A stretch of DNA of 64,000 nt from an uncultured Actinomycetota bacterium (GCA_963718235.1 CAVQYR010000002.1:320001-384000); one strand, 5' to 3'; positions 37,238-55,467 are shown, counted from the first letter of the stretch. A program made the numbers and translations. The notes: generated by a model from the letters alone, not told the origin.

Positions 37238-39256
37238 GTGACGACCGAGCCCTCGAACCGTAGGGGAGATGACGTGACGGACACGCAGCGCGAGGAGGCA
37301 CGAGCCGGAGCCTCGGCGGCCCTCGGGGGTCAGACCCGGGACGTGATGTCCGTGCACGGCGCCGACGTCGGACAAGGTCGTGAGCGTCAGCGGATCCGCC
37401 GGCTTCGCCGGCTGACCGTCTTCCTCGTCATCCCGGGGCTCTACCTTTGGTTCCGGATCCTGTCCGGGGACCCCGTGCGGTTCGGCCTTCCGGAGTTCGA
37501 CCTCTACCTGCTGGTCCCCGTGCTGTTCTTCGTCACCCTGATCGCCATCCTGGTCGGGAGCTCGGTCGGAGCCGGCCGCTCTCCCCACGTCACCTACCGT
37601 CCCGAGCAGATCACCACGCGGTTGGACGACGTCAAGGGCATCGACCCGGTCAAGGAAGACGTGATCCGGTCGCTCAACCTCTTCCTGGCCCACAAGACCT
37701 TCGCCAGCGAGATGGGGGGAACACCTCGCCGTGGCCTGCTCTTCGAGGGCGACCCCGGGACGGGCAAGACCTTTCTCGCCAAGGCGATGGCTCGCGAGGC
37801 AGGCGTCCCGTTCCTGTTCGTCTCGGCCACGAGCTTCCAGTCGATGTACTACGGCGCGACCGCGCGCAAGATCCGGTCGTACTTCAAGAAGCTGCGGAAG
37901 ATGGCTCGCCAGGAAGGAGGAGTGATCGGCTTCATCGAGGAGATCGACGCGATCGCGACGGCCCGTGGCGGGCTGTCCGCCACGACCATGCCGGAGTCGA
38001 TCGCCGCGTCAGGGCTGCATGCCTGCGGTGCGGTTGCCGCGATGCCCTCGACCTACCTTCGGCTCGGGGGTTCGGTCACCGGTGGCTCGGGCACGGTGAA
38101 GCACCCCTCCATGGTGAGCGAGGGTGTGGGCGGGGTGGTCAACGAGCTCCTGGTGCAGATGCAGTCGTTCGACGAGCCCACGGGCTGGCAGAAGCTGCAC
38201 ACCCGGGTCGTCGAGTGGGTCAACCTCCTCCTGCCGCTGCACCGGCAGCTCAAGCGTCCGGAGCCCCCCGCCACCAACATCCTGCTCATCGCGGCGACCA
38301 ACCGGGCAGACAACCTCGACCCCGCGCTGCTGCGGCCCGGACGCTTCGACCGTCGACTGACCTTCGAGCGCCCGAGCAAGCCCGGACGACGCGAGATCAT
38401 CGACCACTACCTGACCGTCAAGGCGCACGACAGCGAGCTGGACGACGACGTGACGCGGGACCAGCTGGCAGCCGCGACCCAGGGCTACACCCCCGTCATG
38501 ATCGAGCACCTCTTCGACGAGGCGCTGGTCAACGCAGTCCGTCGCGGAGACGGTGCCATGACGTGGCCGGACGTGGAGCGCGCCCGACTCGTCGAGGAGG
38601 TCGGGCTCGGGCAGCCCGTCACGTACACCGAGCACGAGCGCCGGCTGATCGCGACGCACGAGGCCGGCCACGCCACGGTCGCGTACCTGGTGGCCCCCCA
38701 CCGGCGGCTGGAGATCCTCACGATCATCAAGCGCCGCAGTGCTCTCGGGATGCTCGCCCACGGCGACGTCGAGGAGGTCTACACCCGCTCCCGCAAGGAG
38801 ATGCTCGGGCTGATCCAGATCGCCTTCGGTGGGCAGTGCGCCGAGGAGATCTTCTTCGGTGACGTGACCACCGGGCCCGGGGGTGACCTCCTCTACGCAA
38901 CCAATGTGGCGGCCGACATGGTCGGTTCGTGCGGGATGGTGGACTCGCTGGTCTCCTACGCCGCGATCCAGAACAGCGCCTTCAACGACAGCAACATCGC
39001 CGGCCGCGTGCTCAGCGACCCCGACGGACGAGCTCAGGTCGAAGACCTCCTGCAGGAGCAGAAGGTGCTCGTTCGAGGGCTGCTCGACTCCAACGCGCAC
39101 CTCGTCGAGGCGCTTCGGGACGCACTCATCGAGCGTGAGGAGCTGATCGGGGGGCAGATCAGCGAGGTCCTCGACGCGGCCAGGGCGGCGCACGAGGGCG
39201 CGTCGCAGGTCATCGACCTTCGCGCCGACGCGGCAAAGGCGCCGGTCAGCGGCTGA
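37238..39256 (+). CDS. FtsH-like membrane AAA+ ATPase / M41 Zn protease paralog
   Basis: 2 TM, GDPGTGKT, FIEEIDA, ATNRADNLDPALLRPGRFDR, HEAGH; start may be 37274. Confidence 0.88.
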   Translation: MTTEPSNRRGDDVTDTQREEARAGASAALGGQTRDVMSVHGADVGQGRERQRIRRLRRLTVFLVIPGLYLWFRILSGDPVRFGLPEFDLYLLVPVLFFVTLIAILVGSSVGAGRSPHVTYRPEQITTRLDDVKGIDPVKEDVIRSLNLFLAHKTFASEMGGTPRRGLLFEGDPGTGKTFLAKAMAREAGVPFLFVSATSFQSMYYGATARKIRSYFKKLRKMARQEGGVIGFIEEIDAIATARGGLSATTMPESIAASGLHACGAVAAMPSTYLRLGGSVTGGSGTVKHPSMVSEGVGGVVNELLVQMQSFDEPTGWQKLHTRVVEWVNLLLPLHRQLKRPEPPATNILLIAATNRADNLDPALLRPGRFDRRLTFERPSKPGRREIIDHYLTVKAHDSELDDDVTRDQLAAATQGYTPVMIEHLFDEALVNAVRRGDGAMTWPDVERARLVEEVGLGQPVTYTEHERRLIATHEAGHATVAYLVAPHRRLEILTIIKRRSALGMLAHGDVEEVYTRSRKEMLGLIQIAFGGQCAEEIFFGDVTTGPGGDLLYATNVAADMVGSCGMVDSLVSYAAIQNSAFNDSNIAGRVLSDPDGRAQVEDLLQEQKVLVRGLLDSNAHLVEALRDALIEREELIGGQISEVLDAARAAHEGASQVIDLRADAAKAPVSG

Positions 39257-39260
39257 GGCT

Positions 39261-39299
39261 GGGCCGATCGGGCTACAGATGGGACAACCAGTGGTCGAT
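39261..39299 (+). promoter_or_regulatory. GGCCGATCGGGC box + sigma28-like promoter TACA-N16-GTCGAT before cheW
   Basis: Same arrangement and spacing at 48615 and 50359. Confidence 0.6.
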
Positions 39300-39819
39300 G
39301 TTGGCCGATGTGGAGACCGTCGACGCGCTGACCCGAACGACTGACGATGCCGACAGCGGTGTCGCGGTGCCGATCCGTGGGGTGATCCTGCGCTTCGCGG
39401 GGGCCCGCTACGCCGTCGACATGGCTACGGTGGCCGAGGTCGTTCCGGTGCCCTTCGTCACCCGAATCCCCGGGGCGCCCGCGTGGCTGTCCGGAGTCGT
39501 GAACTGGCGTGGGCGGGTCCTGCCGGTGATGGACCTGCGCCCTCTCGTGGGAGCTCCGTTGGCCCCGTCGCCGACCAGCGCCCGTCTGGTCGTGCTCAGC
39601 GTCGACGACGTGGAGTGCGGCCTGGTCGCCGACATGGTCCCGGGCCTGCTCGACTGCGACGCGTCGACCCTCGAGCCCATGCCGGCCACGGCGGCACACA
39701 GCATCGGGCCGCTCGTCCGCGGGATCCTGGACGACGGGGGACCGGTGGCCCTCCTCGACAGTGCGGCGGTGCTGAGCCTGCGTGAGCAGCTTCCGACGGC
39801 ACGCCGAGCCACCCGATGA
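39298..39819 (+). CDS. cheW: Chemotaxis coupling protein CheW
   Basis: [38 protein letters not shown]; real start possibly GTG 39310. Confidence 0.92.
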
Positions 39820-41474
39820 ACGCCATCTTCAGTCGCCGGGACATGGCGGCCACCATGTCGGTGCATCTGCTGTTCGCCGCGATGGTCGTGGTCGCGCTCG
39901 TGCTCGAGCAGCGGTACACGCCGGCCGTGGTCCTGTCCCTGCCGCTTGCCATGCTCGCCGTGGTCGTGGCGGTCGCCACTAGCGTCTTCACCTCGGGGGT
40001 GGCGGTCTGGACCTGGCGCACCCGGCGAGGGATCGACACCACGTCGGTCTGGGACCCGGTCACCTCGCTGGTCCAGCTCGGCGTGGCGCTGGTCGCGACG
40101 TACTCCCTTGGCGGGTTCGCGGGCGTCGGATGGATGCTCGTGCTCGTCCTGGTGCCCTACTTCGGGGTGGTCTTCGGCACCGGTCAGCTGCGAGTCCTCG
40201 CAGTGGTGGCAGGAGTGGCCACGACCGCGATCGGGGTGGTGAGCGAGAGCTGGGGCGCCGCCCGACTCCCGACCGCCGTGATGGCGGTAGGGACGGTCGT
40301 CCTCACTCTGTGGTTCACCGAGCAGTCGGCGTCCTACCTCTTCAGCATGAGGCGGCACGCGCAGCTCCAGCAGCAGGCGGTCGAGGGCCGCGCCCAGGAG
40401 ATCTCCGAGGCACTCAGTGCGGCGGCCGTCGGTGACCTGACGGTCCACGCCCCCGCGCACGGCGAGCGCTCCGAGCTCGACGTCGAGTCGACCCGATCGT
40501 TGGACGACCTGGCTGGGTCGTTTGATCACACGGTGGCGGCGTTGAGGGTGTTGGTGGGTCAGGTTCGGTCGGGTGGGGAGCAGATGGGGGCTGCGGCGGG
40601 TCAGGTGTTGGTGGCGGCTCAGGAGCAGGCGGTGTCGGCGGCGGAGCAGTCGTCTGCGGTGGCGCAGACGACGGCGACGATTGAGGAGTTGGCGGCGACG
40701 GCGGCTCAGATTGCTGAGACGTCGGAGTCGGTGGCGCGGTTCGCGTCGGAGACGTTGGGGTTTGCTGAGCAGGGTCGTTCGGCGGTGGCTGCGTCGGTGG
40801 CGGCGATGGACAGTATTGCGTCGCGGGTGGATTCGATTGCTTCTCGGGCTTTGGGGTTGGGGGAGAAGGGTCAGGAGATCGGTCGGATTCTGCAGGTGAT
40901 TGATGAGTTGGCTGATCAGACGAACTTGTTGGCGTTGAATGCTGCGATTGAGGCGGCTCGTGCGGGTGAGCATGGGCGTGGGTTCGCGGTGGTGGCTTCT
41001 GAGGTTCGTAAGTTGGCGGAGCGTTCTCAGGAGTCCGCGGGTCAGATCCAGGCGATTGTGACTCAGATTCAGGCTGAGACGAATGCGACGATCTTGGCGT
41101 CTGAGGCTGGGGCCCGTGAGGTGCATCAGGGGGCGGGGTTGGCCCAAGACGTGGTGGTGGCGTTGGAGCGGATCTCCGGGATGGTGGATGAGACGACCAC
41201 TGCGGCCAAGGAGATCAGTATTGCCACTCAGCAGCAGCGCAGTGCTTCTGACCAGGTGGTCTCGGCGATGACCCAGGTCTCTGATGTGTCTCGGCAGTAC
41301 GCGGTGGGTTCCAAGCAGGCCGCGGCCGCGGCCGGTCAGCTGACCACGTTGGCTGCGGAGCTGCGGGCCTCGATCGCCCAGTTCAAGACCAACGAGGCAC
41401 CGGGGCGGCCATCGAGTGCGACCCACGCCGCACCTCATCACGATCGGGAGCGAGTCGGTGTACACCAGGCGTAA
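39816..41474 (+). CDS. Methyl-accepting chemotaxis protein 1 (multi-TM sensor)
   Basis: [39 protein letters not shown] hairpin; ~6 TM N-terminus. Confidence 0.95.
40509..41395 (+). repeat. G/T-skewed signalling-domain cassette, copy 1 (887 bp)
   Basis: Near-identical to 42145-43031, 49539-50267 and 51297-52140. Confidence 0.93.
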
Positions 41475-43038
41475 CGCGTACGAGTCGTCGGGACAGCACT
41501 GGTTGGTGCTGACTCTCGCTCTGCTCATGTCGTGGCTGGCCTGGCAGGACGGGGGCACCTCGCTCCAACCGGGTCCGACCGGCGTCGCTCTGGTCGTCCT
41601 GGCCGGGATCGCGCTGGTCACGACGATGCTGGCCGTGCGCGCCGTTCGGGTCGGGCAGTCCCTGGTCGAGACGATGGTCTGGGAGAGCGCCGTCTGCATC
41701 CTGGGAATCCTCACCCTGACCGGGCTGGTCGGCGTCTCCGGAGGGCTCACGTCCCCCACGGTGTTCGTCCTGCTGGTCTGGGCTCCCTACCTCGGGATGT
41801 CGGTGAGCCGCTGGTACACGGTGACCACCCTGGTCCTGCTCGTCGGCGGCCTGTTCGTCTCGGGCTGGCTGTCCGGCACCCTGACCGGGCACTGGCCGAC
41901 CGCCGTGGCCTACGGCGCCGCGCTCACGGCCGCGGTGCTGGTGACCTATCTCTACGCCTCGGACCTGTACCGCGAGCGTTTCGTCGCCGAGGAGCAGGAG
42001 CACGGGCTCCGGGAGCAGGTCGAGGCGCTCGCGAGCGCGCTGCAGCAGACCGCGCAGGGCAACCTCACGGTCTCGGCGCCCGACGTGGCGACGACCCACT
42101 CCGACGACGAGCTGCTGAACGAGCGGGCGCAGCAGATGGCTCTGCTGGCTGGGTCGTTTGATCACACGGTGGCGGCGTTGAGGGTGTTGGTGGGTCAGGT
42201 TCGGTCGGGTGGGGAGCAGATGGGGGCTGCGGCGGGTCAGGTGTTGGTGGCGGCTCAGGAGCAGGCGGTGTCTGCGGCGGAGCAGTCGTCTGCGGTGGCG
42301 CAGACGACGGCGACGATTGAGGAGTTGGCGGCGACGGCGGCTCAGATTGCTGAGACGTCGGAGTCGGTGGCGCGGTTCGCGTCGGAGACGTTGGGGTTTG
42401 CTGAGCAGGGTCGTTCGGCGGTGGCTGCGTCGGTGGCGGCGATGGACAGTATTGCGTCGCGGGTGGATTCGATTGCTTCTCGGGCTTTGGGGTTGGGGGA
42501 GAAGGGTCAGGAGATCGGTCGGATTCTGCAGGTGATTGATGAGTTGGCTGATCAGACGAACTTGTTGGCGTTGAATGCTGCGATTGAGGCGGCTCGTGCG
42601 GGTGAGCATGGGCGTGGGTTCGCGGTGGTGGCTTCTGAGGTTCGTAAGTTGGCGGAGCGTTCTCAGGAGTCCGCGGGTCAGATCCAGGCGATTGTGACTC
42701 AGATTCAGGCTGAGACGAATGCGACGATCTTGGCGTCTGAGGCTGGGGCCCGTGAGGTGCATCAGGGGGCGGGGTTGGCCCAAGACGTGGTGGTGGCGTT
42801 GGAGCGGATCTCCGGGATGGTGGATGAGACGACCACTGCGGCCAAGGAGATCAGTATTGCCACTCAGCAGCAGCGCAGTGCTTCTGACCAGGTGGTCTCG
42901 GCGATGACCCAGGTCTCTGATGTGTCTCGGCAGTACGCGGTGGGTTCCAAGCAGGCCGCGGCCGCGGCCGGTCAGCTGACCACGTTGGCTGCGGAGCTGC
43001 GGGCCTCGATCGCCCAGTTCAAGACCAACGACGGCTGA
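41458..43038 (+). CDS. Methyl-accepting chemotaxis protein 2
   Basis: Same signalling domain; GGGAG SD 7 nt before GTG 41458 (alternative start 41416). Confidence 0.93.
42145..43031 (+). repeat. G/T-skewed signalling-domain cassette, copy 2
   Basis: Offset 1636 from copy 1; one difference seen by eye. Confidence 0.93.
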
Positions 43039-43189
43039 GTGCGGCGGGGCGGCGTCCACGTCCTCGGAGCCCCGACTCCGGAAGTCGGATGCCTGCCCGC
43101 AGGCGCCTGTCGAAGCGTGAACCCCGGGTCTGGCTCGTCTAGGCTGCCTCGAAGCTCGCTGAAGGCTCGAGCAGACCCTGGAGCAGTCC

Positions 43190-46100
43190 ATGTTCTCCCT
43201 GAGGTGGCGCGACGGCGCCCTGCGGGTCACCGCATGGGTCGCGTCGTCGTCGACGGCCGCACTGGCCGTCACGGGGCTGCTCGTCCTGGGGGCTCCCTCG
43301 GCGGGTGCAGCCGGGCTCTGTGCCACCCCCGGCGGCTCGGGGGCAGGCGGCACCCTCACCGGTGTGGTCAACACGTACTACCCCGGCACAGGGGTGGTCG
43401 CCGCTGGAGCGACGAGCATCAACGTGGGATCGGCGTCCGGGGCGGCGAACCCCATTGCGGCCGGTGACCTGTTGCTCGTCATCCAGATGCAGGCCGCCGA
43501 CTTCGACTCGACCAACACCAACGCGTACGGACACGGTCCTCCCGCGGTGGCGCCGGCGTCCGGCTACACCGGCCTCAACCAGGCCGGACGTTACGAGTAC
43601 GTGCGCGCGACATCCGGTGTCGTCGCGGGGTCGGTCGGTGTGAGTGGGCTCGGCCCCGGCGCCGGACTGGTCAACGACTACGTCTCCGCAGCCGCGACCG
43701 GCGTCAGCGGCCAGCGCACGTTCCAGGTCGTCCGGGTCCCGCAGTACACGACCGCGACGACCAGCTCGACGCTCACCGCCTCGCCGTGGAACGGGTCCGT
43801 CGGGGGAGTCCTGGCCGTCGACACGACCTCAACCCTCACCCTCAACGGGACCGTGAGTGTTGACGGTCTTGGCTTCCGCGGAGGGGCCGGGATCCAGCGC
43901 GGTGGTGCGGCCGGGTTGGCCAACACCGACGTGGTGACCAGTGCCACGCTCGCCGCCAACGGCAACAAGGCCGAAGGCATCGCCGGAACTCCGGTCGGGA
44001 CGAGCGCCGGCAACGGCTACCCGGGCGGAGATGCCGCGCGCGGGGCGCCGGGGAACGCAGGTGGTGGGGGCACCGACGGTCAGCCGTCGGCCAACGACCA
44101 GAACTCAGGTGGTGGCGGCGGGGGCAACGGCGGAGCCGGCGGCCAAGGGGGCAACACCTGGTCGTCCAACCTGCCCCGTGGCGGATACGGCGGGGTGGCC
44201 CTGCCGGCCGGTGCGAGCCGAGCCTTCCTCGGTGGTGGCGGTGGTGCCGGTACCTCGAACAACTTCCCGCCACCAGCGGCCAACGGGGCCGCAGGGGGCG
44301 GCATCGTGATGATCCGCGCCGGGTCGGTGGGCGGTGCGGGCACGATCTCGGCCAACGGCGCGGACGCGTACAACCTCACCGCCAACGACGGCGCAGGTGG
44401 GGGCGGCGCCGGGGGGACGGTCATGCTGACCTCGCCGAGCAGCTCGCTCGCCGGGGCGACGTTGAGGGCGAACGGTGGCCGCGGTGGCAACGCGTGGGCC
44501 ACCCAGGCCGGGGCCGGGAGTGCGCACGGTCCTGGTGGCGGCGGCGGTGGTGGCTGGGTCCTCACCTCGAGCCCGCCCACCTCCGCCAGCGTCACGGGCG
44601 GGGCGAACGGCATCACCACCACCGGCAACCTCCCCTACAACGCCACGCCCGGTGGCGCCGGGCAGACGGCCACGGTGGCCCCGTCGTCGATCCCCGGAGT
44701 CAGTGGTGGCGCTGAGTGCGCCGACCTGTCGGTGACGAAGTCGGGTCCGGGGTCGGTGTCGGCGGGTGGGGCGGTCAGCTATGACCTGACGGTGGCCAAT
44801 GCTGGTCCGTCGGATGCGGTGGCGGTGTCGGTGGTGGACACGTTGCCGGCTGGGGTGTCGTTCGTGTCGGTGTCGGCGGGTGGGGCGTGGTCGTGCTCGA
44901 ACGCGGGGGACGTGTCGGTGACGTGTACTCGGCCGTTGTGGGCGGCGGGGTCACCGCCGGAGACGATCACGGTCGTGGTGACCGCTCCGGCCCAGGCGAG
45001 CACGCTGGTCAACAGCGTGTCCGTGTCGGCGACGACGCCCGACCCCGACCCGACGAACAACACCGCAACAGCTACCACCGACGTGACTCCGCTCGCCGAC
45101 CTCTCGGTCCTGAAGTCGGGTCCGGTCACCGTTCTGGCGGGTGGGACGGTCAGCTATGACCTGACGGTGGCCAATGCTGGTCCGTCGGATGCGGTGGCGG
45201 TGTCGGTGGTGGACACGTTGCCGGCTGGGGTGTCGTTCGTGTCGGTGTCGGCGGGTGGGGCGTGGTCGTGCTCGAACGCGGGGGACGTGTCGGTGACGTG
45301 TACTCGGCCGTTGTGGGCGGCGGGGTCACCGCCGGAGACGATCACGGTGGTGGTCACTGCTCCGGCCCAGGCTGGGTCGTTGACGAACACGGTGTCGGTG
45401 TCCTCGACCACCTCAGACCCCGATCTGACCAACAACACCGACTCGACCACCACCGGGGTGGCTGGTTCGGCTGACTTGTCGGTGACTAAGTCGGGTCCGG
45501 GGTCGGTGTCGGCGGGTGGGACGGTCAGCTATGACCTGACGGTGGCCAATGCTGGTCCGTCGGATGCGGTGGCGGTGTCGGTGGTGGACACGTTGCCGGC
45601 TGGGGTGTCGTTCGTGTCGGTGTCGGCGGGTGGGGCGTGGTCGTGCTCGAACGCGGGGGACGTGTCGGTGACGTGTACTCGGCCGTTGTTCGCCGCGGGT
45701 GCCCCGGCGTCGGTGATCACGGTGGTGGTCACGGCTCCGGCTTCGGCTACGACGTTGACCAACTCGGTGTCGGTGGCGTCCACGACGGCTGACCCGGACT
45801 CGACGAACAACTCTGACTCGGTGGACACCACGGTGACGGCGTCGGCTGACTTGTCGGTGACTAAGTCGGGTCCGGGGTCGGTGTCGGCGGGTGGGACGGT
45901 CAGCTATGACCTGACGGTGGCCAATGCTGGTCCGTCGGATGCGGTGGCGGTGTCGGTGGTGGACACGTTGCCGGCTGGGGTGTCGTTCGTGTCGGTGTCG
46001 GCGGGTGGGGCGTGGTCGTGCTCGAACGCGGGGGACGTGTCGGTGACGTGTACTCGGCCGTTGTTCGCCGCGGGTGCCCCGGCGTCGGTGATCACGGTGG

Positions 46101-48601
46101 TGGTCACGGCTCCGGCTTCGGCTACGACGTTGACCAACTCGGTGTCGGTGGCGTCCACGACGGCTGACCCGGACTCGACGAACAACTCTGACTCGGTGGA
46201 CACCACGGTGACGGCGTCGGCTGACTTGTCGGTGACTAAGTCGGGTCCGGGGTCGGTGTCGGCGGGTGGGACGGTCAGCTATGACCTGACGGTGGCCAAT
46301 GCTGGTCCGTCGGATGCGGTGGCGGTGTCGGTGGTGGACACGTTGCCGGCTGGGGTGTCGTTCGTGTCGGTGTCGGCGGGTGGGGCGTGGTCGTGCTCGA
46401 ACGCGGGGGACGTGTCGGTGACGTGTACTCGGCCGTTGTGGGCGGCGGGGTCACCGCCGGAGACGATCACGGTGGTGGTGACTGCTCCGGCCCAGGCTGG
46501 GTCGTTGACGAACACGGTGTCGGTGTCCTCGACCACCTCAGACCCCGATCTGACCAACAACACCGACTCGACCACCACCGGGGTGGCTGGTTCGGCTGAC
46601 TTGTCGGTGACTAAGTCGGGTCCGGGGTCGGTGTCGGCGGGTGGGGCGGTCAGCTATGACCTGACGGTGGCCAATGCTGGTCCGTCGGATGCGGTGGCGG
46701 TGTCGGTGGTGGACACGTTGCCGGCTGGGGTGTCGTTCGTGTCGGTGTCGGCGGGTGGGGCGTGGTCGTGCTCGAACGCGGGGGACGTGTCGGTGACGTG
46801 TACTCGGCCGTTGTTCGCCGCGGGTGCCCCGGCGTCGGTGATCACGGTGGTGGTCACGGCTCCGGCTTCGGCTACGACGTTGACCAACTCGGTGTCGGTG
46901 GCGTCCACGACGGCTGACCCGGACTCGACGAACAACTCTGACTCGGTGGACACCACGGTGACGGCGTCGGCTGACTTGTCGGTGACTAAGTCGGGTCCGG
47001 GGTCGGTGTCGGCGGGTGGGGCGGTCAGCTATGACCTGACGGTGGCCAATGCTGGTCCGTCGGATGCGGTGGCGGTGTCGGTGGTGGACACGTTGCCGGC
47101 TGGGGTGTCGTTCGTGTCGGTGTCGGCGGGTGGGGCGTGGTCGTGCTCGAACGCGGGGGACGTGTCGGTGACGTGTACTCGGCCGTTGTTCGCCGCGGGT
47201 GCCCCGGCGTCGGTGATCACGGTGGTGGTCACGGCTCCGGCTTCGGCTACGACGTTGACCAACTCGGTGTCGGTGGCGTCCACGACGGCTGACCCGGACT
47301 CGACGAACAACTCTGACTCGGTGGACACCACGGTGACGGCGTCGGCTGACTTGTCGGTGACTAAGTCGGGGCCGGGGTCGGTGTCGGCGGGTGGGACGGT
47401 CAGCTATGACCTGACGGTGGCCAATGCTGGTCCGTCGGATGCGGTGGCGGTGTCGGTGGTGGACACGTTGCCGGCTGGGGTGTCGTTCGTGTCGGTGTCG
47501 GCGGGTGGGGCGTGGTCGTGCTCGAACGCGGGGGACGTGTCGGTGACGTGTACTCGGCCGTTGTGGGCGGCGGGGTCACCGCCGGAGACGATCACGGTGG
47601 TGGTGACTGCTCCGGCCCAGGCTGGGTCGTTGACGAACACGGTGTCGGTGTCCTCGACCACCTCAGACCCCGATCTGACCAACAACACCGACTCGACCAC
47701 CACCGGGGTCGGGGACTCCGCCGACCTGACCATCACCAAGACCGGCCCGGCCACGGTCAGGGCCGGTGGCAGCATCGAGTACGGGCTGCAGGTGCGGAAC
47801 CTCGGTCCGTCGGCCGCTGACTCGGTCGTGGTGACCGACACCCTTCCCGGCGGCGTGGTCTTCGGGTCCGCCTCGGGCATGGGCTGGTCGTGTGGCCACA
47901 GCGGGAATGTGTCAGTCACCTGCACCCGCCTGGCCCTGGGGCCTGGGGTGCAGGCCCCGGAGATCTCCGTGGTGGTGTCCGCACCCGGTCGGGCGAGCAC
48001 CCTTCGGAACGTGGCGTCGGTGGGGTCGGCCACCCCGGACCCTGACCCGACGAACGACACGGACTCGGCTCGGACCCGGGTCTCCGCGGCCGCAGACCTC
48101 TCCCTGGTCAAGGTCGGCCCCGCCCGCACCTCGGTCGGTGCGACCATCGCCTACCGACTGGTCGTCACCAACGCCGGCCCCGACCCGGCGGTCGGGGTCA
48201 GGGTCACCGACCGGCTGCCGTCCGGTGCGACGTTCAGATCCGCGGCCGGGCCAGGGTGGTCGTGCAGCGCCACCGCGGCGCACCGGGTCGTATGCGACCG
48301 GGCGCGGTTGGCCGACGGCGCGAGCGCCCCCGCGATCACCGTCTCGGTCACGGCGCCCGCGTCACCGGTCGACCTGGTCAACACCGCTGGGGTGACGGCG
48401 GACACCTACGACCCCGTCGATGACAACAACGCTGCCTCTGCAGCCACCTCGGTGCTGGCGCACTTCGGAGGTTCGGGGGGCGAGCTCCCGCGCACGGGGG
48501 GCGGGGATCTGCGCCTGCTGACCCTGCTGGGGGTCGTTCTCCTCGCGTGTGGCACCGCCTTGTCCAGTGCCTTGCCCTCCCGGTCGCGGCGGGCCGGTTG
48601 A
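43190..48601 (+). CDS. Large cell-wall-anchored adhesin-like protein: Gly-rich N-domain, 10 DUF11-type repeats, LPRTG sortase signal
   Basis: Signal peptide; ADLSVTKSGP...YDLTVANAGPSDA...VVDTLP...DPD..NN repeats; LPRTG + hydrophobic segment + RSRR tail. Confidence 0.9.
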   Translation: MFSLRWRDGALRVTAWVASSSTAALAVTGLLVLGAPSAGAAGLCATPGGSGAGGTLTGVVNTYYPGTGVVAAGATSINVGSASGAANPIAAGDLLLVIQMQAADFDSTNTNAYGHGPPAVAPASGYTGLNQAGRYEYVRATSGVVAGSVGVSGLGPGAGLVNDYVSAAATGVSGQRTFQVVRVPQYTTATTSSTLTASPWNGSVGGVLAVDTTSTLTLNGTVSVDGLGFRGGAGIQRGGAAGLANTDVVTSATLAANGNKAEGIAGTPVGTSAGNGYPGGDAARGAPGNAGGGGTDGQPSANDQNSGGGGGGNGGAGGQGGNTWSSNLPRGGYGGVALPAGASRAFLGGGGGAGTSNNFPPPAANGAAGGGIVMIRAGSVGGAGTISANGADAYNLTANDGAGGGGAGGTVMLTSPSSSLAGATLRANGGRGGNAWATQAGAGSAHGPGGGGGGGWVLTSSPPTSASVTGGANGITTTGNLPYNATPGGAGQTATVAPSSIPGVSGGAECADLSVTKSGPGSVSAGGAVSYDLTVANAGPSDAVAVSVVDTLPAGVSFVSVSAGGAWSCSNAGDVSVTCTRPLWAAGSPPETITVVVTAPAQASTLVNSVSVSATTPDPDPTNNTATATTDVTPLADLSVLKSGPVTVLAGGTVSYDLTVANAGPSDAVAVSVVDTLPAGVSFVSVSAGGAWSCSNAGDVSVTCTRPLWAAGSPPETITVVVTAPAQAGSLTNTVSVSSTTSDPDLTNNTDSTTTGVAGSADLSVTKSGPGSVSAGGTVSYDLTVANAGPSDAVAVSVVDTLPAGVSFVSVSAGGAWSCSNAGDVSVTCTRPLFAAGAPASVITVVVTAPASATTLTNSVSVASTTADPDSTNNSDSVDTTVTASADLSVTKSGPGSVSAGGTVSYDLTVANAGPSDAVAVSVVDTLPAGVSFVSVSAGGAWSCSNAGDVSVTCTRPLFAAGAPASVITVVVTAPASATTLTNSVSVASTTADPDSTNNSDSVDTTVTASADLSVTKSGPGSVSAGGTVSYDLTVANAGPSDAVAVSVVDTLPAGVSFVSVSAGGAWSCSNAGDVSVTCTRPLWAAGSPPETITVVVTAPAQAGSLTNTVSVSSTTSDPDLTNNTDSTTTGVAGSADLSVTKSGPGSVSAGGAVSYDLTVANAGPSDAVAVSVVDTLPAGVSFVSVSAGGAWSCSNAGDVSVTCTRPLFAAGAPASVITVVVTAPASATTLTNSVSVASTTADPDSTNNSDSVDTTVTASADLSVTKSGPGSVSAGGAVSYDLTVANAGPSDAVAVSVVDTLPAGVSFVSVSAGGAWSCSNAGDVSVTCTRPLFAAGAPASVITVVVTAPASATTLTNSVSVASTTADPDSTNNSDSVDTTVTASADLSVTKSGPGSVSAGGTVSYDLTVANAGPSDAVAVSVVDTLPAGVSFVSVSAGGAWSCSNAGDVSVTCTRPLWAAGSPPETITVVVTAPAQAGSLTNTVSVSSTTSDPDLTNNTDSTTTGVGDSADLTITKTGPATVRAGGSIEYGLQVRNLGPSAADSVVVTDTLPGGVVFGSASGMGWSCGHSGNVSVTCTRLALGPGVQAPEISVVVSAPGRASTLRNVASVGSATPDPDPTNDTDSARTRVSAAADLSLVKVGPARTSVGATIAYRLVVTNAGPDPAVGVRVTDRLPSGATFRSAAGPGWSCSATAAHRVVCDRARLADGASAPAITVSVTAPASPVDLVNTAGVTADTYDPVDDNNAASAATSVLAHFGGSGGELPRTGGGDLRLLTLLGVVLLACGTALSSALPSRSRRAG
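44720..47719 (+). repeat. 8 x 375-bp tandem G/T-skewed repeats (DUF11 units); two diverged units follow to ~48460
   Basis: Units start at 44720 + 375n; variant order A' A B B A B B A. Confidence 0.95.
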
Positions 48602-48614
48602 CCGACCGGCACTA

Positions 48615-48652
48615 GGCCGAACGGGCTACAGGTCGCCCGCGCTCCCGCCGAT
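48615..48652 (+). promoter_or_regulatory. GGCCGAACGGGC box + TACA-N16-GCCGAT sigma28-like promoter before MCP3
   Basis: TACA 48627-48630, GCCGAT 48647-48652. Confidence 0.65.
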
Positions 48653-48709
48653 CCTCCGGGGAGGCCTCGGCGTGCGTCGAGGTTCCACGGCAAGGAGTGG
48701 AGCGGGATC

Positions 48710-50359
48710 GTGAGCGTGACTGACATCGAGGCGAGCTCGCCGGTCGACGTTGCGCTGTGCTTCACCCGTCGCAACGCGGTCGAGACCGTCTCCCTGCACT
48801 GGGGCCTGGTCGCGCTCGCCGGATCGCTGGGTGTGCTCTGGTCCTGGGCGGCCGAGAGCGCGCTGCCCCTGATGGTCGTCGGCGGCCTTGCGGTCCAGCT
48901 GCTCACAGCCATCGCGGTCACGTGGCTCGCGGTCGACGCGGTCCGGTCGACCGCCACCTTCGACAGTACCGACCGGTGGGACGGTCCGACCGCGGTCGTG
49001 CCGGCCGTGGCGATCGTCATCGAGACCGTGGGCACCGGCGGAGCGACCAGCCCGCTCTGGCTGGCCCTCGTGGTCTCCGTCGTCTACCTGGGGACTGCGC
49101 TGGTCTACGAGCTGCGGTACTTCGTCGCAGCCGGACTGGTCGCCGCTCCCTGGCTGTCGACGATCGCCGTCGGTGAACCCACCCGGATGAGCTGGGTCTT
49201 CGCCGCAGGTCTCAGCGTGAGCCTGCCGGCGGTCTACCTCGTGGTCCGGGGTGCGTCTCGGGCCCTGTACGACGAGGCGGAGCGGATCGGGCTGAGTCAG
49301 GCCGAGCTCGACCGGCAGGTCCGCGAGCTGTCCGGAGCACTCGGACGGGCCGCCAAGGGCGACCTGGTCACCGATGTCGCTCGGGTGGCGGGAATGCATG
49401 CTGAGGGACTCGGGACCAGTGCGCTCGCCCAGCTGTCCGACGCCTTCAACGAGACGCTCGGTGCCCTGCGTGACCTGGTGGGTCAGATCCGTTCGGGTGG
49501 CGACCAGCTCGGCGCGTCGGCTACCCAGCTCGTCTCGACGGCTCAGGAGCAGGCGGTGTCTGCGGCGGAGCAGTCGTCTGCGGTGGCGCAGACGACGGCG
49601 ACGATTGAGGAGTTGGCGGCGACGGCGGCTCAGATTGCTGAGACGTCGGAGTCGGTGGCGCGGTTCGCGTCGGAGACGTTGGGGTTTGCTGAGCAGGGTC
49701 GTTCGGCGGTGGCTGCGTCGGTGGCGGCGATGGACAGTATTGCGTCGCGGGTGGATTCGATTGCTTCTCGGGCTTTGGGGTTGGGGGAGAAGGGTCAGGA
49801 GATCGGTCGGATTCTGCAGGTGATTGATGAGTTGGCTGATCAGACGAACTTGTTGGCGTTGAATGCTGCGATCGAGGCGGCTCGTGCGGGTGAGCATGGG
49901 CGTGGGTTCGCGGTGGTGGCTTCTGAGGTTCGTAAGTTGGCGGAGCGTTCTCAGGAGTCCGCGGGTCAGATCCAGGCGATTGTGACTCAGATTCAGGCTG
50001 AGACGAATGCGACGATCTTGGCGTCTGAGGCTGGGGCCCGTGAGGTGCATCAGGGGGCGGGGTTGGCCCAAGACGTGGTGGTGGCGTTGGAGCGGATCTC
50101 CGGGATGGTGGATGAGACGACCACTGCGGCCAAGGAGATCAGTATTGCCACTCAGCAGCAGCGCAGTGCTTCTGACCAGGTGGTCTCGGCGATGACCCAG
50201 GTCTCTGATGTGTCTCGGCAGTACGCGGTGGGTTCCAAGCAGGCCGCGGCCGCGGCCGGTCAGCTGAACTCCCTGGCGATCCACCTGAGCGCTGCGATCG
50301 CCCAGTTCAAGACCGACCGCAACGGGGGTTCGCACACCCCCGCGGACCTCGATCGCTAG
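48710..50359 (+). CDS. Methyl-accepting chemotaxis protein 3
   Basis: Multi-TM sensor plus the same MCP hairpin. Confidence 0.95.
49539..50267 (+). repeat. G/T-skewed signalling-domain cassette, copy 3 (729 bp)
   Basis: Matches 40615-41343. Confidence 0.92.
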
Positions 50360-50396
50360 GCCGATCGGGCTACAGCAGTGCGCCCGGGCTTCCGAT
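50359..50396 (+). promoter_or_regulatory. GGCCGATCGGGC box + TACA-N16-TCCGAT sigma28-like promoter before MCP4
   Basis: TACA 50371-50374, TCCGAT 50391-50396. Confidence 0.62.
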
Positions 50397-50452
50397 GACG
50401 TCGAGAAGGCGTCGTTCGACGTCTGCGGTCTCCGGCCGAGGAGGGATGAGCG

Positions 50453-52201
50453 GTGCCCAGCCACGAGCAGACCACCGCTGCCCCCGACGCGGCCCCACAG
50501 CTGACTGCTGCCGAGCTGCTCGAGGCCATCGACCGGAGCAAGACGGGCGGCGCCTCACTTCCCTTCACCCAGCGCAACCTGGTCGAGACGACGGTGCTGC
50601 ACTGGGGACTCACCGCCTTCGCGGGCGCGATCGTCGTGCTCTGGTCGCAAGCGATGCGAACGACCGTGGACCCCCTGCTGTGGGTGACCCTGGGACTGCA
50701 GGTCCTGATCGCCGTCGTGGCGACTGGCCTCGCCGTGCACGCTCGTCGGGCCCGGCTGACGTATGAGTCGACCGACGCGTGGGACGGGCTCACCGGGGCA
50801 CTCCAGGTCGCAGCCGCTGCCGCCGGAACGATCTGGACCGGCGGCGTGACCAGCCCGCTGTGGATCGCCGTCATCGTGGGCTCGGGCTACCTCGCCACCG
50901 TGCTCGTCTACGCCAGCGGCTGGGTCATGGTCGGACTGCTGGCGGTCGCCGCTCCCCTGAGCGGCTACCTGTCCGGCACCCTCGACCCCGACGTCGTGCC
51001 CGCCGCCGTACCGGTGACCTTCGCGCTGACCCTCGGCATGCCCGCCCTGTACGTGGTCGTGCGTGGGACGTCGCGGGCGCTCTACGACGCGGCGGAGGGG
51101 GTCGGCTGGGACCAGGCGCTCCTGACCGCCCAGGTGCGGGAGATGGCGCTCGCCCTCGACCGGGCCTCGGCAGGCGACCTCTCGGTGCGGACCACCCTCG
51201 TCGCCTCCGACCTGCAGTCGAGAGGCGATGAGACCACCGGCCATGTCGTGGCCCTGGCATCGACGTTCGACCACACGCTCGAGTCCCTTCGACGCCTGGT
51301 GGGTCAGGTTCGGTCGGGTGGGGAGCAGATGGGGGCTGCGGCGGGTCAGGTGTTGGTGGCGGCTCAGGAGCAGGCGGTGTCGGCGGCGGAGCAGTCGTCT
51401 GCGGTGGCGCAGACGACGGCGACGATTGAGGAGTTGGCGGCGACGGCGGCTCAGATTGCTGAGACGTCGGAGTCGGTGGCGCGGTTCGCGTCGGAGACGT
51501 TGGGGTTTGCTGAGCAGGGTCGTTCGGCGGTGGCTGCGTCGGTGGCGGCGATGGACAGTATTGCGTCGCGGGTGGATTCGATTGCTTCTCGGGCTTTGGG
51601 GTTGGGGGAGAAGGGTCAGGAGATCGGTCGGATTCTGCAGGTGATTGATGAGTTGGCTGATCAGACGAACTTGTTGGCGTTGAATGCTGCGATCGAGGCG
51701 GCTCGTGCGGGTGAGCATGGGCGTGGGTTCGCGGTGGTGGCTTCTGAGGTTCGTAAGTTGGCGGAGCGTTCTCAGGAGTCCGCGGGTCAGATCCAGGCGA
51801 TTGTGACTCAGATTCAGGCTGAGACGAATGCGACGATCTTGGCGTCTGAGGCTGGGGCCCGTGAGGTGCATCAGGGGGCGGGGTTGGCCCAAGACGTGGT
51901 GGTGGCGTTGGAGCGGATCTCCGGGATGGTGGATGAGACGACCACTGCGGCCAAGGAGATCAGTATTGCCACTCAGCAGCAGCGCAGTGCTTCTGACCAG
52001 GTGGTCTCGGCGATGACCCAGGTCTCTGATGTGTCTCGGCAGTACGCGGTGGGTTCCAAGCAGGCCGCGGCCGCGGCCGGTCAGCTGACCACGTTGGCCG
52101 CGGAGCTGCGGGCCTCGATCGCCCAGTTCAAGACCAACGACACAGCGGACCGATCACCTGACCGCAAGGTCGCGTCGAGCGGACTGGAGGCGCGCGCATG
52201 A
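50453..52201 (+). CDS. Methyl-accepting chemotaxis protein 4
   Basis: Multi-TM sensor plus the same MCP hairpin; ATGA overlap with cheA. Confidence 0.95.
51297..52140 (+). repeat. G/T-skewed signalling-domain cassette, copy 4 (844 bp)
   Basis: Matches 40552-41395. Confidence 0.92.
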
Positions 52202-54421
52202 GCAGCTGGGCCAACGATCCCGAACTGGTCGCGACCTTCCGCCAAGAGGTGGAGGACCGGCTCGTCTCGCTGTGTGACGGCCTTCTGAAGCTCGAGGGTC
52301 ACCCGCAGCCCCGACAGCTGGTCGCCGCGCTGTTCCGCGACGCCCACACCGTCAAGGGCTCGGCGAGAATGCTGAGCCTGGACGAGGTCGTCGAGGTGGC
52401 TCACCGCTCGGAGGACCTGCTCGGCGCGGTGCGCGACGGCCGGTTCGAGCCGCGCAAGGACCTCGTCGACCTGCTCCTGATGGCAGCTGAGGGGATCCGG
52501 CGTGGTCTCCCCGGCTCCGAGCGCTCGGTGGCCGCGGACGAGCTGGCAGCGCTGGTCTCCGCCCTCGACCAGGCGCTTTCGGGCATGGACCCGGTCGTGG
52601 TCCCGAGACTGCGGCCACTGTCCGACGAGACCGAAGAGGTCGCGATGGTCGAGAGCGGGCGGGTGCGGACGGGTGAGTCCGTGCGCGTACCGGTCCGTCG
52701 GGTCCACGGGCTGCTCGATGTCGTCGGCGAGGCCGAGCTGGAGTCGCGCAAGGTCGAACGCTACGTCCATGAGCTGGCCGGTCTCTCCGGCGAGCACCTG
52801 CGCCTGGCCCGACAGCTGCGTGCGGCCGCGACCGCGAGCAGCTCTCTTCCCCCGGAGCTCGCGCAGGGGGTCCACGCACTGGTCTCGCTGGGCGACCAGC
52901 TCCAGGCCTCGGTGCGTGAGCTGCGGGGCACCGTCGAGGACGAGCAGAACCGTCTCGCCCAGGTCCGTGAGGGAGCCATGGGCCTGGCCATGGTTCCGGT
53001 CCGTCGGGTCGTCACCGTCTTTCCCCAGCTCGTGCGCGAGCTGGCCACCGAGACGGGCAAGGAGGTCCGCCTCGCGCTGGTCGGGGAGGACGTCGAGCTC
53101 GACACCCGGGTGCTCGACGGCGTCGCCGACGCCCTGCGCCACCTCGTCACCAACGCGGTCGACCACGGATGTGAGCCGCCGGCCGAGCGGACCGCGGCTG
53201 GCAAGCCGGCCTCGGCCACGGTGACCGTCTCGGCCAGGGCGTCCGGCTCGACCGTCGTGATCGAGGTCGCCGACGACGGCTACGGCATCGACGAGACGCA
53301 GCTTCGCGCGGCGGCGATCGAACGAGAGCTCCTGGCAAGCGACTCCCTGCTGTCGGGCCAGCAGCTGCTCCAGGTGCTCTTCCACCCGGGGTTCTCCACC
53401 CGGGAGGAGGTCACGCAGACCTCCGGACGCGGGGTCGGCCTCGACGTCGTCCTCACCGCGGTGGAGGAGCTCGGTGGCACGATCGAGGTCGAGACCCAGC
53501 CAGGGACGGGCACGTCGTTCATCATGACCCTCCCAGTGACGTTGGGTGTCATGCGCTGCCTGGTCGCACGCCTGGGTGAGGAGCGCTACGCCGTACCCGT
53601 CACCAACGTCGTCGAGACGCTGAGCCTGACCGACGTGGCGATGTCGACGGTCGCCGGAGCGCCCGTCCTCGTCCGGCACGGGACCACGGTGCCGCTCGCC
53701 GACCTGGGCCGGGCCCTGGGGGTGCCCGGCGAGCGTGAGACCCGGGTCGGCGTCGTGGTGCGCTACGGCGGTGCCGGCGAGCAGCTCGCCTGGGCCGTCG
53801 ACGCCCTGGAGGGCGAGCTCGAGCTCGTCGTGAAGGACCTGGGTCGCTTTCTCGGCCGCCCACCGTTCATCGGTGGCGGGACGATCGACAGCGACGGCAG
53901 CGTGATGCTGCTGCTCGACATCCGCGAGCTCGCAGTGGAGCAGCTCACCCATGGCACGCCCACTCGACCTGGCCCGACCGGTCCCTCGGGCGACGGCATC
54001 GACCGAGGACGCGCCACCGGCACGGTCGACGGCGACCGGCGGGACCGCCAGGAAGGCCCGGGTGCTCGTCGTCGAGGACTCCGTGGGGGTCCGGGAGCTC
54101 CAGCGCGTGATCCTCGAGGGAGCCGGCTACGACGTCGTGACCGCCGTCGACGGAACCGACGGGGCGGCCCGGCTGACCGGAGACCCGGTCGACCTCGTGC
54201 TCTCCGACGTGGAGATGCCGGGCATGGACGGCTTCACCCTCACCCGGGCCATCCGGCGCAGCCGAAGCTGGCAGAACGTACCGGTCGTCATCATGACCTC
54301 CCGGGGCGACGAGGCGGACCAGCGCGCGGGCATGGACGCCGGCGCCAACGCCTACCTGCTGAAGAGCGAGTTCGACCAGTCAGAGCTCGTGGACACCGTC
54401 CGTCGGCTGGTCGGCAGGTAG
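52198..54421 (+). CDS. cheA: CheA-REC hybrid kinase (FrzE/WspE-like architecture), apparent +1 frameshift at ~53959
   Basis: HPt [38 protein letters not shown], CheW-like P5 domain; REC (VLVVEDS...[11 protein letters not shown]...LLKS) lies in the +1 frame. Confidence 0.9.
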
Positions 54422-54439
54422 TCCGAAACGACCATCTCG

Positions 54440-54476
54440 GGCCGGTCGGCTCAGGTCCCGGCCCGGTCGGGCCGAA
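54440..54476 (+). promoter_or_regulatory. CTCA-N17-GCCGAA sigma28-like promoter with degenerate GGCCGGTCGG box
   Basis: CTCA 54450-54453, GCCGAA 54471-54476, upstream of SD GAAAGG and ATG 54508. Confidence 0.5.
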
Positions 54477-54507
54477 GCATCCTGGAGACAACGAGAAAGG
54501 GCACCTG

Positions 54508-55467
54508 ATGCCGACCGTGGTGATTGCCGACGACAGCCCGGTAGTACGTTCGATCGTGCGGAAAGTGCTCGCGACCGAGGGGTTCGACGTCGTCGAGGCC
54601 GAGGACGGTGTTCTTGCCGTGCAAGCCGTCTTCCGCACCATGCCCGATGCGATCGTGCTCGACGTGCAGATGCCACGGGTGTCCGGCTATGTCACGGCCC
54701 GCCTGCTCAAGGACGACTGGCGGACCGCTGACATCCCGGTCCTGCTCCTGACCTCGCTGGACGCCGCCTCCGACCGCTACTGGGGAGACCGGGTCGGGGC
54801 CGAGCGGTTCCTCACCAAGGACTTCGAGGCCCCCGAGCTCGTCGCGGCGGTGCATGAGGTGCTCGAGAGTGCCGACGCGGCCCGTGGTGGTCGCCCGCCC
54901 CTGCGCCCTGAGCCGGTCGAGATGACCGATGACGACGTGTTCGGCAGCGTCAGCGACATCCTGGACCGCAAGCTGTTCGAGTCATCAATCGCCTCAGAGG
55001 TGATGGGCATCGCTGCGGATGCGAACGGCTTCGAGGCAACGATCGCGCAGGTGCTCGAGGTGCTGAGTCGGGTGGTCGACTACGACCTGGCCGCGGTCTT
55101 GATGCTGGACGACCGGTCGACCTACATCCGGGTGGCGCGCGAGACCTCCCACCAGCAGTACGCGGAGTTCTTCGACGCCGTCGCCGATGCCGTCTCCGAC
55201 TCCACCGGGCAGCGCGTCGCGCCGTCCGACCTGCAGGCGAGAGTGGCCGACCCGGACCGCAACCTGGGCGCCGACGACGAGGGAGAGATGGCAACGTTCT
55301 TGTCGATGCCGCTGAAGTCCGCGGGTGGGATGGTCGGTCTTCTGGCCCTGTCGAGTGCGAGCACGAACGCCTTCGGTGAGACGTCGCTGAACACGCTTCG
55401 GCTGGTCAGCTCGCCGGCGGGCATCGTGGTGGCGAACGCTCGGTATGCAGGGGCACAGGTTCTCTGA
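54508..55467 (+). CDS. Response regulator REC + GAF-like domain, no enzymatic output domain
   Basis: VIADDS...VLDVQMPRVSG...LLTS...LTK; C-terminal FLSMPLKSAGGMVGLLAL GAF-like region. Confidence 0.85.
   Translation: MPTVVIADDSPVVRSIVRKVLATEGFDVVEAEDGVLAVQAVFRTMPDAIVLDVQMPRVSGYVTARLLKDDWRTADIPVLLLTSLDAASDRYWGDRVGAERFLTKDFEAPELVAAVHEVLESADAARGGRPPLRPEPVEMTDDDVFGSVSDILDRKLFESSIASEVMGIAADANGFEATIAQVLEVLSRVVDYDLAAVLMLDDRSTYIRVARETSHQQYAEFFDAVADAVSDSTGQRVAPSDLQARVADPDRNLGADDEGEMATFLSMPLKSAGGMVGLLALSSASTNAFGETSLNTLRLVSSPAGIVVANARYAGAQVL

Follow-up and report, generated by a model that had tools for sequence, protein, structure and literature searches.

An Alternative Cellular Function (ACF)-Like Chemosensory Gene Cluster With a Gene-Converted Receptor Array in an Unflagellated, Uncultured Actinobacterium

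What does a chemosensory gene cluster serve in a bacterium without flagella? The question is raised by a 64,000-nt stretch of DNA from an uncultured Actinomycetota bacterium (GCA_963718235.1, CAVQYR010000002.1:320001-384000, that is G000:C2:320001-384000), referred to below as the window. The genome comprises 3.17 Mb in two contigs (70% G+C, 95% complete), and to our knowledge non-flagellar chemosensory pathways have barely been studied in Actinobacteria. A first-pass annotation of the window had described genes for a coupling protein (CheW), four methyl-accepting chemotaxis proteins (MCPs), a kinase with a receiver domain (CheA-REC) and a regulator of receiver and GAF domains (REC-GAF), and had proposed an undescribed contact-sensing pathway with an embedded DUF11 adhesin as its input or output. 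In this study, we found that the locus is the principal gene cluster of the sole chemosensory pathway in this unflagellated bacterium, and that this ACF-like pathway is real and complete, with a gene-converted receptor array; our results refute the adhesin hypothesis. The genes of the locus are as follows, in window positions.

39298-39819, + strand: cheW, coupling protein of 173 aa (Pfam CheW, 100.3 bits)
39816-41474, + strand: MCP1, receptor with a sensor of about six transmembrane (TM) segments and a 40-heptad signalling domain (Pfam MCPsignal, 150.6 bits)
41416-43038, + strand: MCP2, receptor with an uncertain start (in-frame alternatives at 41458, 41503, 41506 and 41527)
43190-48601, + strand: LPXTG/DUF11 surface protein of 1803 aa, with an AgmC_N-like N-domain and 10 DUF11 stretches
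48710-50359, + strand: MCP3, receptor gene
50453-52201, + strand: MCP4, receptor gene whose stop overlaps the cheA start
52198-54421, + strand: cheA-REC, encoding Hpt (His50), HATPase_c, CheW domain, linker and REC; frame broken as assembled
54508-55467, + strand: REC-GAF response regulator of 319 aa (Pfam Response_reg, 77.2 bits; GAF_2, 36.6 bits)

The co-oriented order cheW-MCP1-MCP2-adhesin-MCP3-MCP4 stood as annotated, and the ATGA stop/start overlaps were found at both junctions where they had been claimed, 39816-39819 (cheW/MCP1) and 52198-52201 (MCP4/cheA); the remainder of the described order, cheA(REC) followed by REC-GAF, held only after a 1-nt frame correction that is justified below. 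Whole-genome family searches counted a single cheA, three genes with a CheW domain and six for receptors. Flagellin, FHIPEP (FlhA) and T2SSE were unmatched in the window by these searches, as expected from the earlier statement that it holds no flagellar or pilus gene. The statement that cheR and cheB are missing was true of the window and wrong for the genome, where cheB (with REC), cheR (with TPR) and a second cheW are neighbours on contig C1 at ~563.7-566.8 kb. The C1 CheR protein matched CheR with 173.1 bits, and its TPR_16 match (E 1.6e-5, 25.7 bits) was under the Pfam curated cut-off of 32.7. The search of the rest of the genome that had been recommended also found a type IV pilus cluster on contig C1 (PilB, PilT, PilC, two pilins and PilN), and neither flagellin nor FlhA was matched in the 95%-complete genome. 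With a single cheA and no such flagellar match, the earlier description of a non-flagellar CheA-REC hybrid system was supported.

To which class of chemosensory system does this pathway belong? Residues 241-524 of MCP1 aligned without gaps to residues 266-549 of the Pseudomonas receptor 6s18 and to the CtpM model, and the signalling part of MCP1 was 28 residues longer than that of Tsr. With 6s18 and CtpM, which we take to be 40-heptad (40H) references, and Tsr, presumably 36H, this alignment indicates that the receptors are of the 40H class. The CheA contains a single Hpt and a single CheW domain and ends in REC. CheA-REC proteins occur mostly in the F3, F5, ACF and type IV pilus (Tfp) classes, with two CheW domains in F5 and mostly multi-Hpt kinases in Tfp (PMC10782961). 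The hallmarks of ACF systems are a CheR-TPR and a multidomain response regulator, those with GAF included, and CheR-TPR was described as "almost absent" from Gram-positives as of 2012 (PMC3447774); 40H is the ACF-cognate receptor type in Actinobacteria, where ACF was found in six flagellated species (PMC10746217). In our genome, a multidomain response regulator is encoded with the cluster, the REC-GAF gene following cheA-REC; the C1 gene encodes a CheR-TPR, as far as its sub-cut-off TPR match can be taken; and the receptors are 40H as indicated by alignment. The flagellar F5 class is the one that later Actinobacteria usually have; its features, two CheW domains, 38H receptors and flagellar genes, were not found, since one CheW domain, 40H receptors and no flagellin/FHIPEP match were observed. 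The system fits the published ACF (Wsp-like) kind, and the locus is probably the core of the single chemosensory pathway of the genome, predicted to be Wsp-type and ACF-like rather than flagellar.

The Wsp system of Pseudomonas (WspA-F and WspR) is the model ACF system and consists of two CheW proteins, a CheA-REC, a CheB and membrane receptor(s). WspC is a CheR-TPR and WspR a REC-GGDEF protein (PMC3447774). Two CheW proteins, CheA-REC, CheR-TPR, CheB, membrane receptors and a multidomain response regulator as output are all shared with the system described here. Some homologues of the present CheA also bear NCBI names that open in the manner of the WspE annotation, as far as the names were given (up to "Ws"). 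Unlike Wsp, however, the output here is a REC-GAF protein, with GGDEF missing from the 319-aa protein and from 30 aligned orthologues, the adaptation genes are unlinked, the ~six-TM receptors form a homogenised array, and the host is an actinobacterium. A system of similar layout is on record for Acidothermus cellulolyticus 11B, which is listed with an ACF system in Table S3 and one 40H receptor in Table S4 of PMC10746217. Its accession numbers imply that cheW to cheA lie in one locus and cheB-cheR-cheW in another, as here, whereas its genome is also flagellated with an F5 system and REC-GAF is not among the entries of the table (PMC10746217). Our literature search on CheA and chemotaxis in Acidothermus found no paper. 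Calling the system "undescribed" was overstated, considering that the ACF hallmarks were published (PMC3447774) and a similar split layout was tabulated as ACF (PMC10746217).

The assignment of REC to the kinase depends on the frame correction. As assembled, 52198-55467 is a single open frame of 1089 aa, in which residues ~590-770 are arginine-rich nonsense; the CheA receiver domain was recognized in the +1 frame at ~54053-54421 (Pfam, 92.7 bits), ending at the TAG at 54419-54421. The CheA core and REC share one stop-free frame in 33 of the 34 related loci, the sole exception being another long-read assembly, and REC was present in 119/120 of the best CheA homologues, most of them ~725-760 aa long. 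Most of the sequencing runs compared with the stretch contain small shares of it only, and no conclusion on habitat was drawn from them. An independent public run (X1) gave a 463-nt contig that differs from the window in 4 letters and has one base fewer at 53958; it is a single short-read contig at a depth of 4.2, 99% identical to the window, and the absence of this one base restores the CheA frame. The position of the indel could not be fixed by aligning the DNA of the cheA linker, which varies too much. We attribute the frameshift most probably to an assembly error by which one nucleotide was inserted near 53958 next to a run of C; it may also be specific to the strain. Once it is allowed for, the locus holds no single-domain REC gene of the PilG/PilH type. 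Split tblastn matches in five other loci (L028, L031, L034, L046 and L050) suggest frameshifts in further long-read assemblies, and single-base indel errors seem to be common in long-read records of this lineage.

How far is this gene set conserved? The conserved unit consists of cheW, one to six or more 40H ~six-TM receptors, CheA-REC and REC-GAF, and it was found in many Actinomycetes families. The same order, with one to six or more receptors, was kept throughout the bacterium's own family. In 18 distant loci from 13 other families, chosen around REC-GAF orthologues (at least one record, L108, duplicating L051), the FtsH-like gene, cheW, one to four receptors, cheA-REC and REC-GAF followed each other in that order in all 18. 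The search of actinobacterial genomes for the gene order, also recommended earlier, was thus positive once the adhesin is left out of the order. REC-GAF lies directly 3' of cheA-REC in 32/34 related loci (one REC-GAF match being cut by a contig end and two contigs stopping before REC-GAF) and in 18/18 distant ones. Of 120 class genomes sampled, 47 had full-length REC-GAF orthologues, which in every locus checked adjoined cheA-REC. The first 120 sampled class genomes were cross-tabulated by hand with five unpublished ones left out, giving 46 carriers (REC-GAF E < 1e-60) and 69 non-carriers; a CheR-TPR orthologue was defined by E < 1e-59. The counts, which are descriptive as related genomes are not independent, were as follows.

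CheR-TPR orthologue: carriers 43/46, non-carriers 0/69 (with unpublished genomes, 44/47 and 0/73)
PilT over cut-off: carriers 44/46, non-carriers 31/69 (with unpublished genomes, 45/47 and 35/73)
FlhA: carriers 10/46, non-carriers 17/69 (with unpublished genomes, 10/47 and 21/73)

The distribution of CheR-TPR ties the unlinked adaptation genes to the cluster, and the carriers are mostly pilus-bearing, unflagellated genomes. The PilT counts, the pilus genes (PilB, PilT, PilC, pilins, PilN) of a genome without flagellar genes, and the C-terminal REC on CheA would also be expected of a Tfp-class (Pil-Chp-like) system in direct control of twitching motility by type IV pili. We consider such a system unlikely, because the CheA has a single Hpt while multi-Hpt kinases predominate in Tfp (PMC10782961), the locus encodes no single-domain CheY of the PilG/PilH type, the pilus genes lie on the other contig, and CheR-TPR with a multidomain response regulator indicates ACF (PMC3447774). 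As a separate observation, the pilus cluster (G000:C1 ~1932000-1952000, L018) adjoins genes for a small Ras-like GTPase (PF03029) and a DUF4388 protein, which may form a polarity or control module.

The neighbours of the cluster suggested another possibility, an envelope-homeostasis pathway tied to the FtsH-like protease encoded upstream and the VanW/peptidoglycan-binding protein encoded downstream. The FtsH-like paralogue (window 37238-39256), a divergent membrane protein, is directly upstream of cheW in every locus checked, has two TM segments, retains intact GDPGTGKT and HEAGH motifs and is 32% identical to the housekeeping copy on C1. The VanW/peptidoglycan-binding gene is downstream in 6/18 distant loci and in most family loci. 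Receptor sensors that are embedded in the membrane would suit such a pathway as well. Further upstream, however, PIG-L (18/18), S9 peptidase and Opp genes are equally conserved, so the FtsH-like adjacency amounts to background synteny, and it was dropped as functional evidence after this synteny control. An envelope-homeostasis pathway of this kind is quite improbable.

What, then, does the kinase act on? The likely output of the pathway is the REC-GAF protein. Its D8, D9, D52, T82 and K104, corresponding to the acidic pocket, Asp52, Thr82 and Lys104, are invariant in 31 aligned REC-GAF orthologues. The AlphaFold2 (AF2) model, with a predicted local distance difference test score (pLDDT) of 89.7, shows REC, long helices and GAF. 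Searches of the REC-GAF protein against a protein atlas and with profiles against the PDB returned nothing past "GAF" and "REC", and Foldseek pointed to no function of the GAF domain. When 1.84 billion representatives were searched with a profile, about a dozen close family members came out, followed by many full-length REC-GAF matches within longer proteins. The tested relatives of 478-505 aa were REC-GAF-GGDEF proteins in 6/6 cases (in Pfam, REC and GGDEF were matched in 6/6 and GAF in 3/6, with the profile spanning REC-GAF in all), and single examples ended in a nucleotide cyclase, in an HD_5 domain and in a kinase ATPase. One REC-GAF-GGDEF protein shared 35% identity over 310 aa, and the linker motif LDRKLFES lay within the matched part. 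On a metagenome contig (L132, Ga0265292_1004119), CheW, MCP, CheA-REC, CheB and a REC-GAF-GGDEF protein are encoded in order. This cluster agrees with ours in gene order, in a REC-GAF module 34% identical over residues 4-312 and in an MCP signalling domain 56% identical; it differs in that its regulator ends in a diguanylate cyclase domain and its cheB is linked. Judged from its sequence, the REC-GAF protein is similar to the regulatory half of REC-GAF-GGDEF cyclases with a link to chemosensory genes, without the cyclase domain, and looks like a WspR-type output minus its cyclase. A gene for a GAF-GGDEF-EAL protein lies in the window at 9966-12521 on the - strand, ~27 kb upstream of cheW. A GAF-GAF partnership between this protein and REC-GAF was considered and is unsupported, since there is no sequence similarity between them.

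How do several receptors remain compatible with one kinase? All four receptors of the first-pass annotation, MCP1-MCP4, are present. MCP1 was judged by eye to have about six TM segments from its hydrophobic stretches, followed by a HAMP-like segment below threshold. No Pfam family was matched by the receptor sensor halves at E up to 1; the sensors are membrane-embedded and have no large outside domain. The four tandem receptors are protein-identical over ~270 residues, and their sensor halves are ~35-65% identical in DNA. The identity corresponds to a homogenised signalling tract of 846 nt, present in four copies with a DNA identity of 95-100%.

40545-41390, + strand: first copy of the tract
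42181-43026, + strand: second copy
49469-50314, + strand: third copy
51290-52135, + strand: fourth copy

Over 840 nt, copies 1, 2 and 4 are 98.9-99.9% identical in pairs and 95.0-95.4% identical to copy 3, and a core of ~706 nt has one mismatch across all four copies. The third-codon counts are G180 C33 A1 T68 in the tract and G112 C109 A10 T12 in the sensor half. The skew of G over C at third codon positions (GC3 skew) is 0.03-0.10 in the two receptors encoded elsewhere in the genome, and relatives with a single receptor are also without skew (-0.06 to 0.24), except L025, whose single-receptor contig could be a collapsed repeat. These features correspond to those of GRINS (genetic repeats with intense nucleotide skews), defined by duplicated segments of >500 bp with >80% identity and mean |GC| and |TA| skew >0.15 in 150-nt windows at a 30-nt step. 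In such windows the tract has a mean |GC skew| of 0.30-0.33 and |TA skew| of 0.18-0.19 (r 0.58-0.69), above these thresholds, as are the DUF11 repeats. Length, identity, skews, a correlation strongest at third codon positions and the association with gene conversion all agree with GRINS, which differ in having been described originally in polyketide synthase genes; the word "chemotaxis" does not occur in the main text of the GRINS paper.

The same pattern was seen beyond this genome. Within each of 8 related genomes with several receptors, the copies share 98.2-100% identity, apart from one diverged copy each in L026 and L028, whereas the tract is 82-86% identical in protein between genomes. 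In the trees, from which three rows with broken sensor halves were dropped, signalling halves of one genome cluster together and sensor halves cluster with their orthologues from other genomes, these groupings carrying starred support. The two escaped signalling halves (L026 2129-2974 and L028 5687-6532) are 63% and 73.5% identical in DNA to the other copies; the GC3 skew is still strong in the L028 copy (0.70) and is 0.10 in the L026 copy. The trees and the codon skew show that GRINS-type gene conversion keeps the common signalling half of the receptors identical, and the benefit would be that each sensor stays matched to the kinase. It could be argued that long-read assembly or polishing of a metagenome-assembled genome produced both the identical tracts and the frameshift, as the frameshift stands beside a C run, the 99%-identical short-read contig lacks that base and split matches occur in other long-read loci. 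For the tracts, however, the pattern recurs in 8 other species, two of which (L037 and L038) show subtype structure, and a G/T codon skew cannot arise from polishing. Moreover, at least 8 related contigs, apparently short-read by their names and lengths, begin within the tract immediately upstream of cheA, as is to be expected of repeats; this argues against a polishing artefact. An artefact behind both is very unlikely, and gene conversion remains our explanation of the tracts. A comparable case is that of Tlp2, Tlp3 and Tlp4 of Campylobacter jejuni, paralogous receptors with identical signalling domains and sensors ~30% identical, which differ from the present ones in being 28H, having periplasmic dCache sensors and belonging to a flagellar system (PMC9769880); the text of that article dealing with these receptors mentions no link to gene conversion or codon skew (PMC9769880).

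Does the surface protein encoded within the array belong to the pathway? As a gene, the embedded sortase adhesin is well founded: LPRTG at residue 1766 is followed by the hydrophobic stretch LRLLTLLGVVLLACGTAL and an RSRRAG tail, a signal peptide was recognized by eye, and two sortase genes were matched in the genome, all as expected of a sortase-anchored LPXTG protein. Its DUF11 repeats consist of eight units of 375 nt (window 44720-47644), 89-95% identical to the reference copy and skewed at the GRINS level (mean |GC| 0.227, |TA| 0.318, r 0.88). The glycine-rich N-domain (43190-44719) matches the N-terminus model of AgmC in NCBIfam with 142.9 bits, below the cut-off of 275; AgmC is a Myxococcus gliding protein. 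This weak likeness, and the position of the gene between MCP2 and MCP3 on the same strand, were what could be said for a contact-sensing pathway with the adhesin as input or output. Against it, tblastn with the N-domain, repeat unit and C-terminus found no adhesin in 35 related loci, 19 of them extending 8 kb or more upstream of cheA, and the same queries found none in 18 loci of other families. An N-domain orthologue was present in 4/19 other family genomes. Two of these have it on a different contig from the REC-GAF gene, in the other two the distance to that gene is 136 kb and 830 kb, and no chemosensory gene lay within ~8-9 kb of the orthologue in any of the four. The first-pass annotation had itself named, as evidence that would speak against its proposal, an adhesin never linked to homologous loci, and this is what was found. 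Missing from related loci and distant from chemosensory genes elsewhere, the adhesin does not belong to the system; the DUF11/LPXTG gene is peculiar to this genome, an insertion within the receptor array that lies outside the pathway, and a role as input or output is extremely unlikely.

Considering the above results, we propose the following model of the ACF-like pathway. The four tandem receptors and the two encoded elsewhere, with different ~six-TM sensors and the 40-heptad module in all, would assemble with CheW and the second CheW around one CheA-REC kinase, as their common module, near-identical in the tandem four, suggests. Membrane or envelope cues would modulate autophosphorylation of CheA on His50, and the phosphoryl group would pass to the REC of CheA itself, to CheB and to Asp52 of REC-GAF, with adaptation provided by the unlinked CheR-TPR and CheB. 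REC-GAF, which has no enzymatic or DNA-binding domain, would likely act through phosphorylation-dependent binding of a partner or ligand by its GAF domain, and our leading guess for its target is the type IV pilus or surface behaviour. That the whole amounts to a clade-wide pathway, in which a WspR-like regulator minus its cyclase switches pilus or surface behaviour through partner binding and a GRINS-driven array supplies receptor cassettes, is a tentative and rather doubtful extension of this model.

Several points weigh against this interpretation. ACF membership was assigned from architecture and published criteria, and the likeness to the Acidothermus system is one of layout, as implied by accession numbers. 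For the REC-GAF protein, Foldseek gave just REC proteins and, at template modelling (TM) scores of only ~0.38, REC+GAF sensor kinases and WspR-type stalks or regulators. Among 10 loci with full-length REC-GAF-GGDEF relatives, several of them short, the arrangement of L132 was found in L132 alone, and one further locus (L176) contained chemosensory genes close by. The association with PilT counts as weak evidence, PilT being found in 31/69 non-carriers as well and the genomes being related. Finally, the frameshift could be real in the strain, in which case the kinase would be without REC and fused out of frame to REC-GAF.

If the Acidothermus cellulolyticus ACF system (PMC10746217) is an orthologue, a cultured species would be available for work on the pathway. 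The REC-GAF protein is an uncharacterised output at the end of a widespread pathway, as its occurrence among the sampled class genomes indicates. The receptor array represents a clean natural example of concerted evolution limited to one domain, widens the range of GRINS-type skewed repeats from polyketide synthases to include signalling receptors, and bears on how a sensory repertoire can grow while staying compatible with a single kinase. In the doubtful extension of the model given above, gene conversion would make the receptors plug-in cassettes, in which a new membrane sensor automatically receives a signalling half that matches the kinase.

Two further observations were made. In six loci from several of the more distant families (L111, L112, L113, L116, L053 and L054), a second, diverged receptor (signalling domain 43-55% identical) lies directly upstream of cheA, besides the conserved one. 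The other concerns the intergenic DNA of the locus. A scan for promoters and terminators gave nothing beyond shuffled expectation, and a 17-nt intergenic motif, GGCCGA[T/A]CGGGCTACAG, was found in three exact copies in the genome, all at this locus, against 0.10 expected by chance in the window.

39262-39278, + strand: just past the stop of the FtsH-like gene, ahead of cheW
48615-48631, + strand: just past the stop of the adhesin gene, ahead of MCP3
50359-50375, + strand: just past the stop of MCP3, ahead of MCP4

Variants of this motif with up to 2 mismatches precede cheW or receptor genes in 6 related loci, and it is possibly a shared control site.

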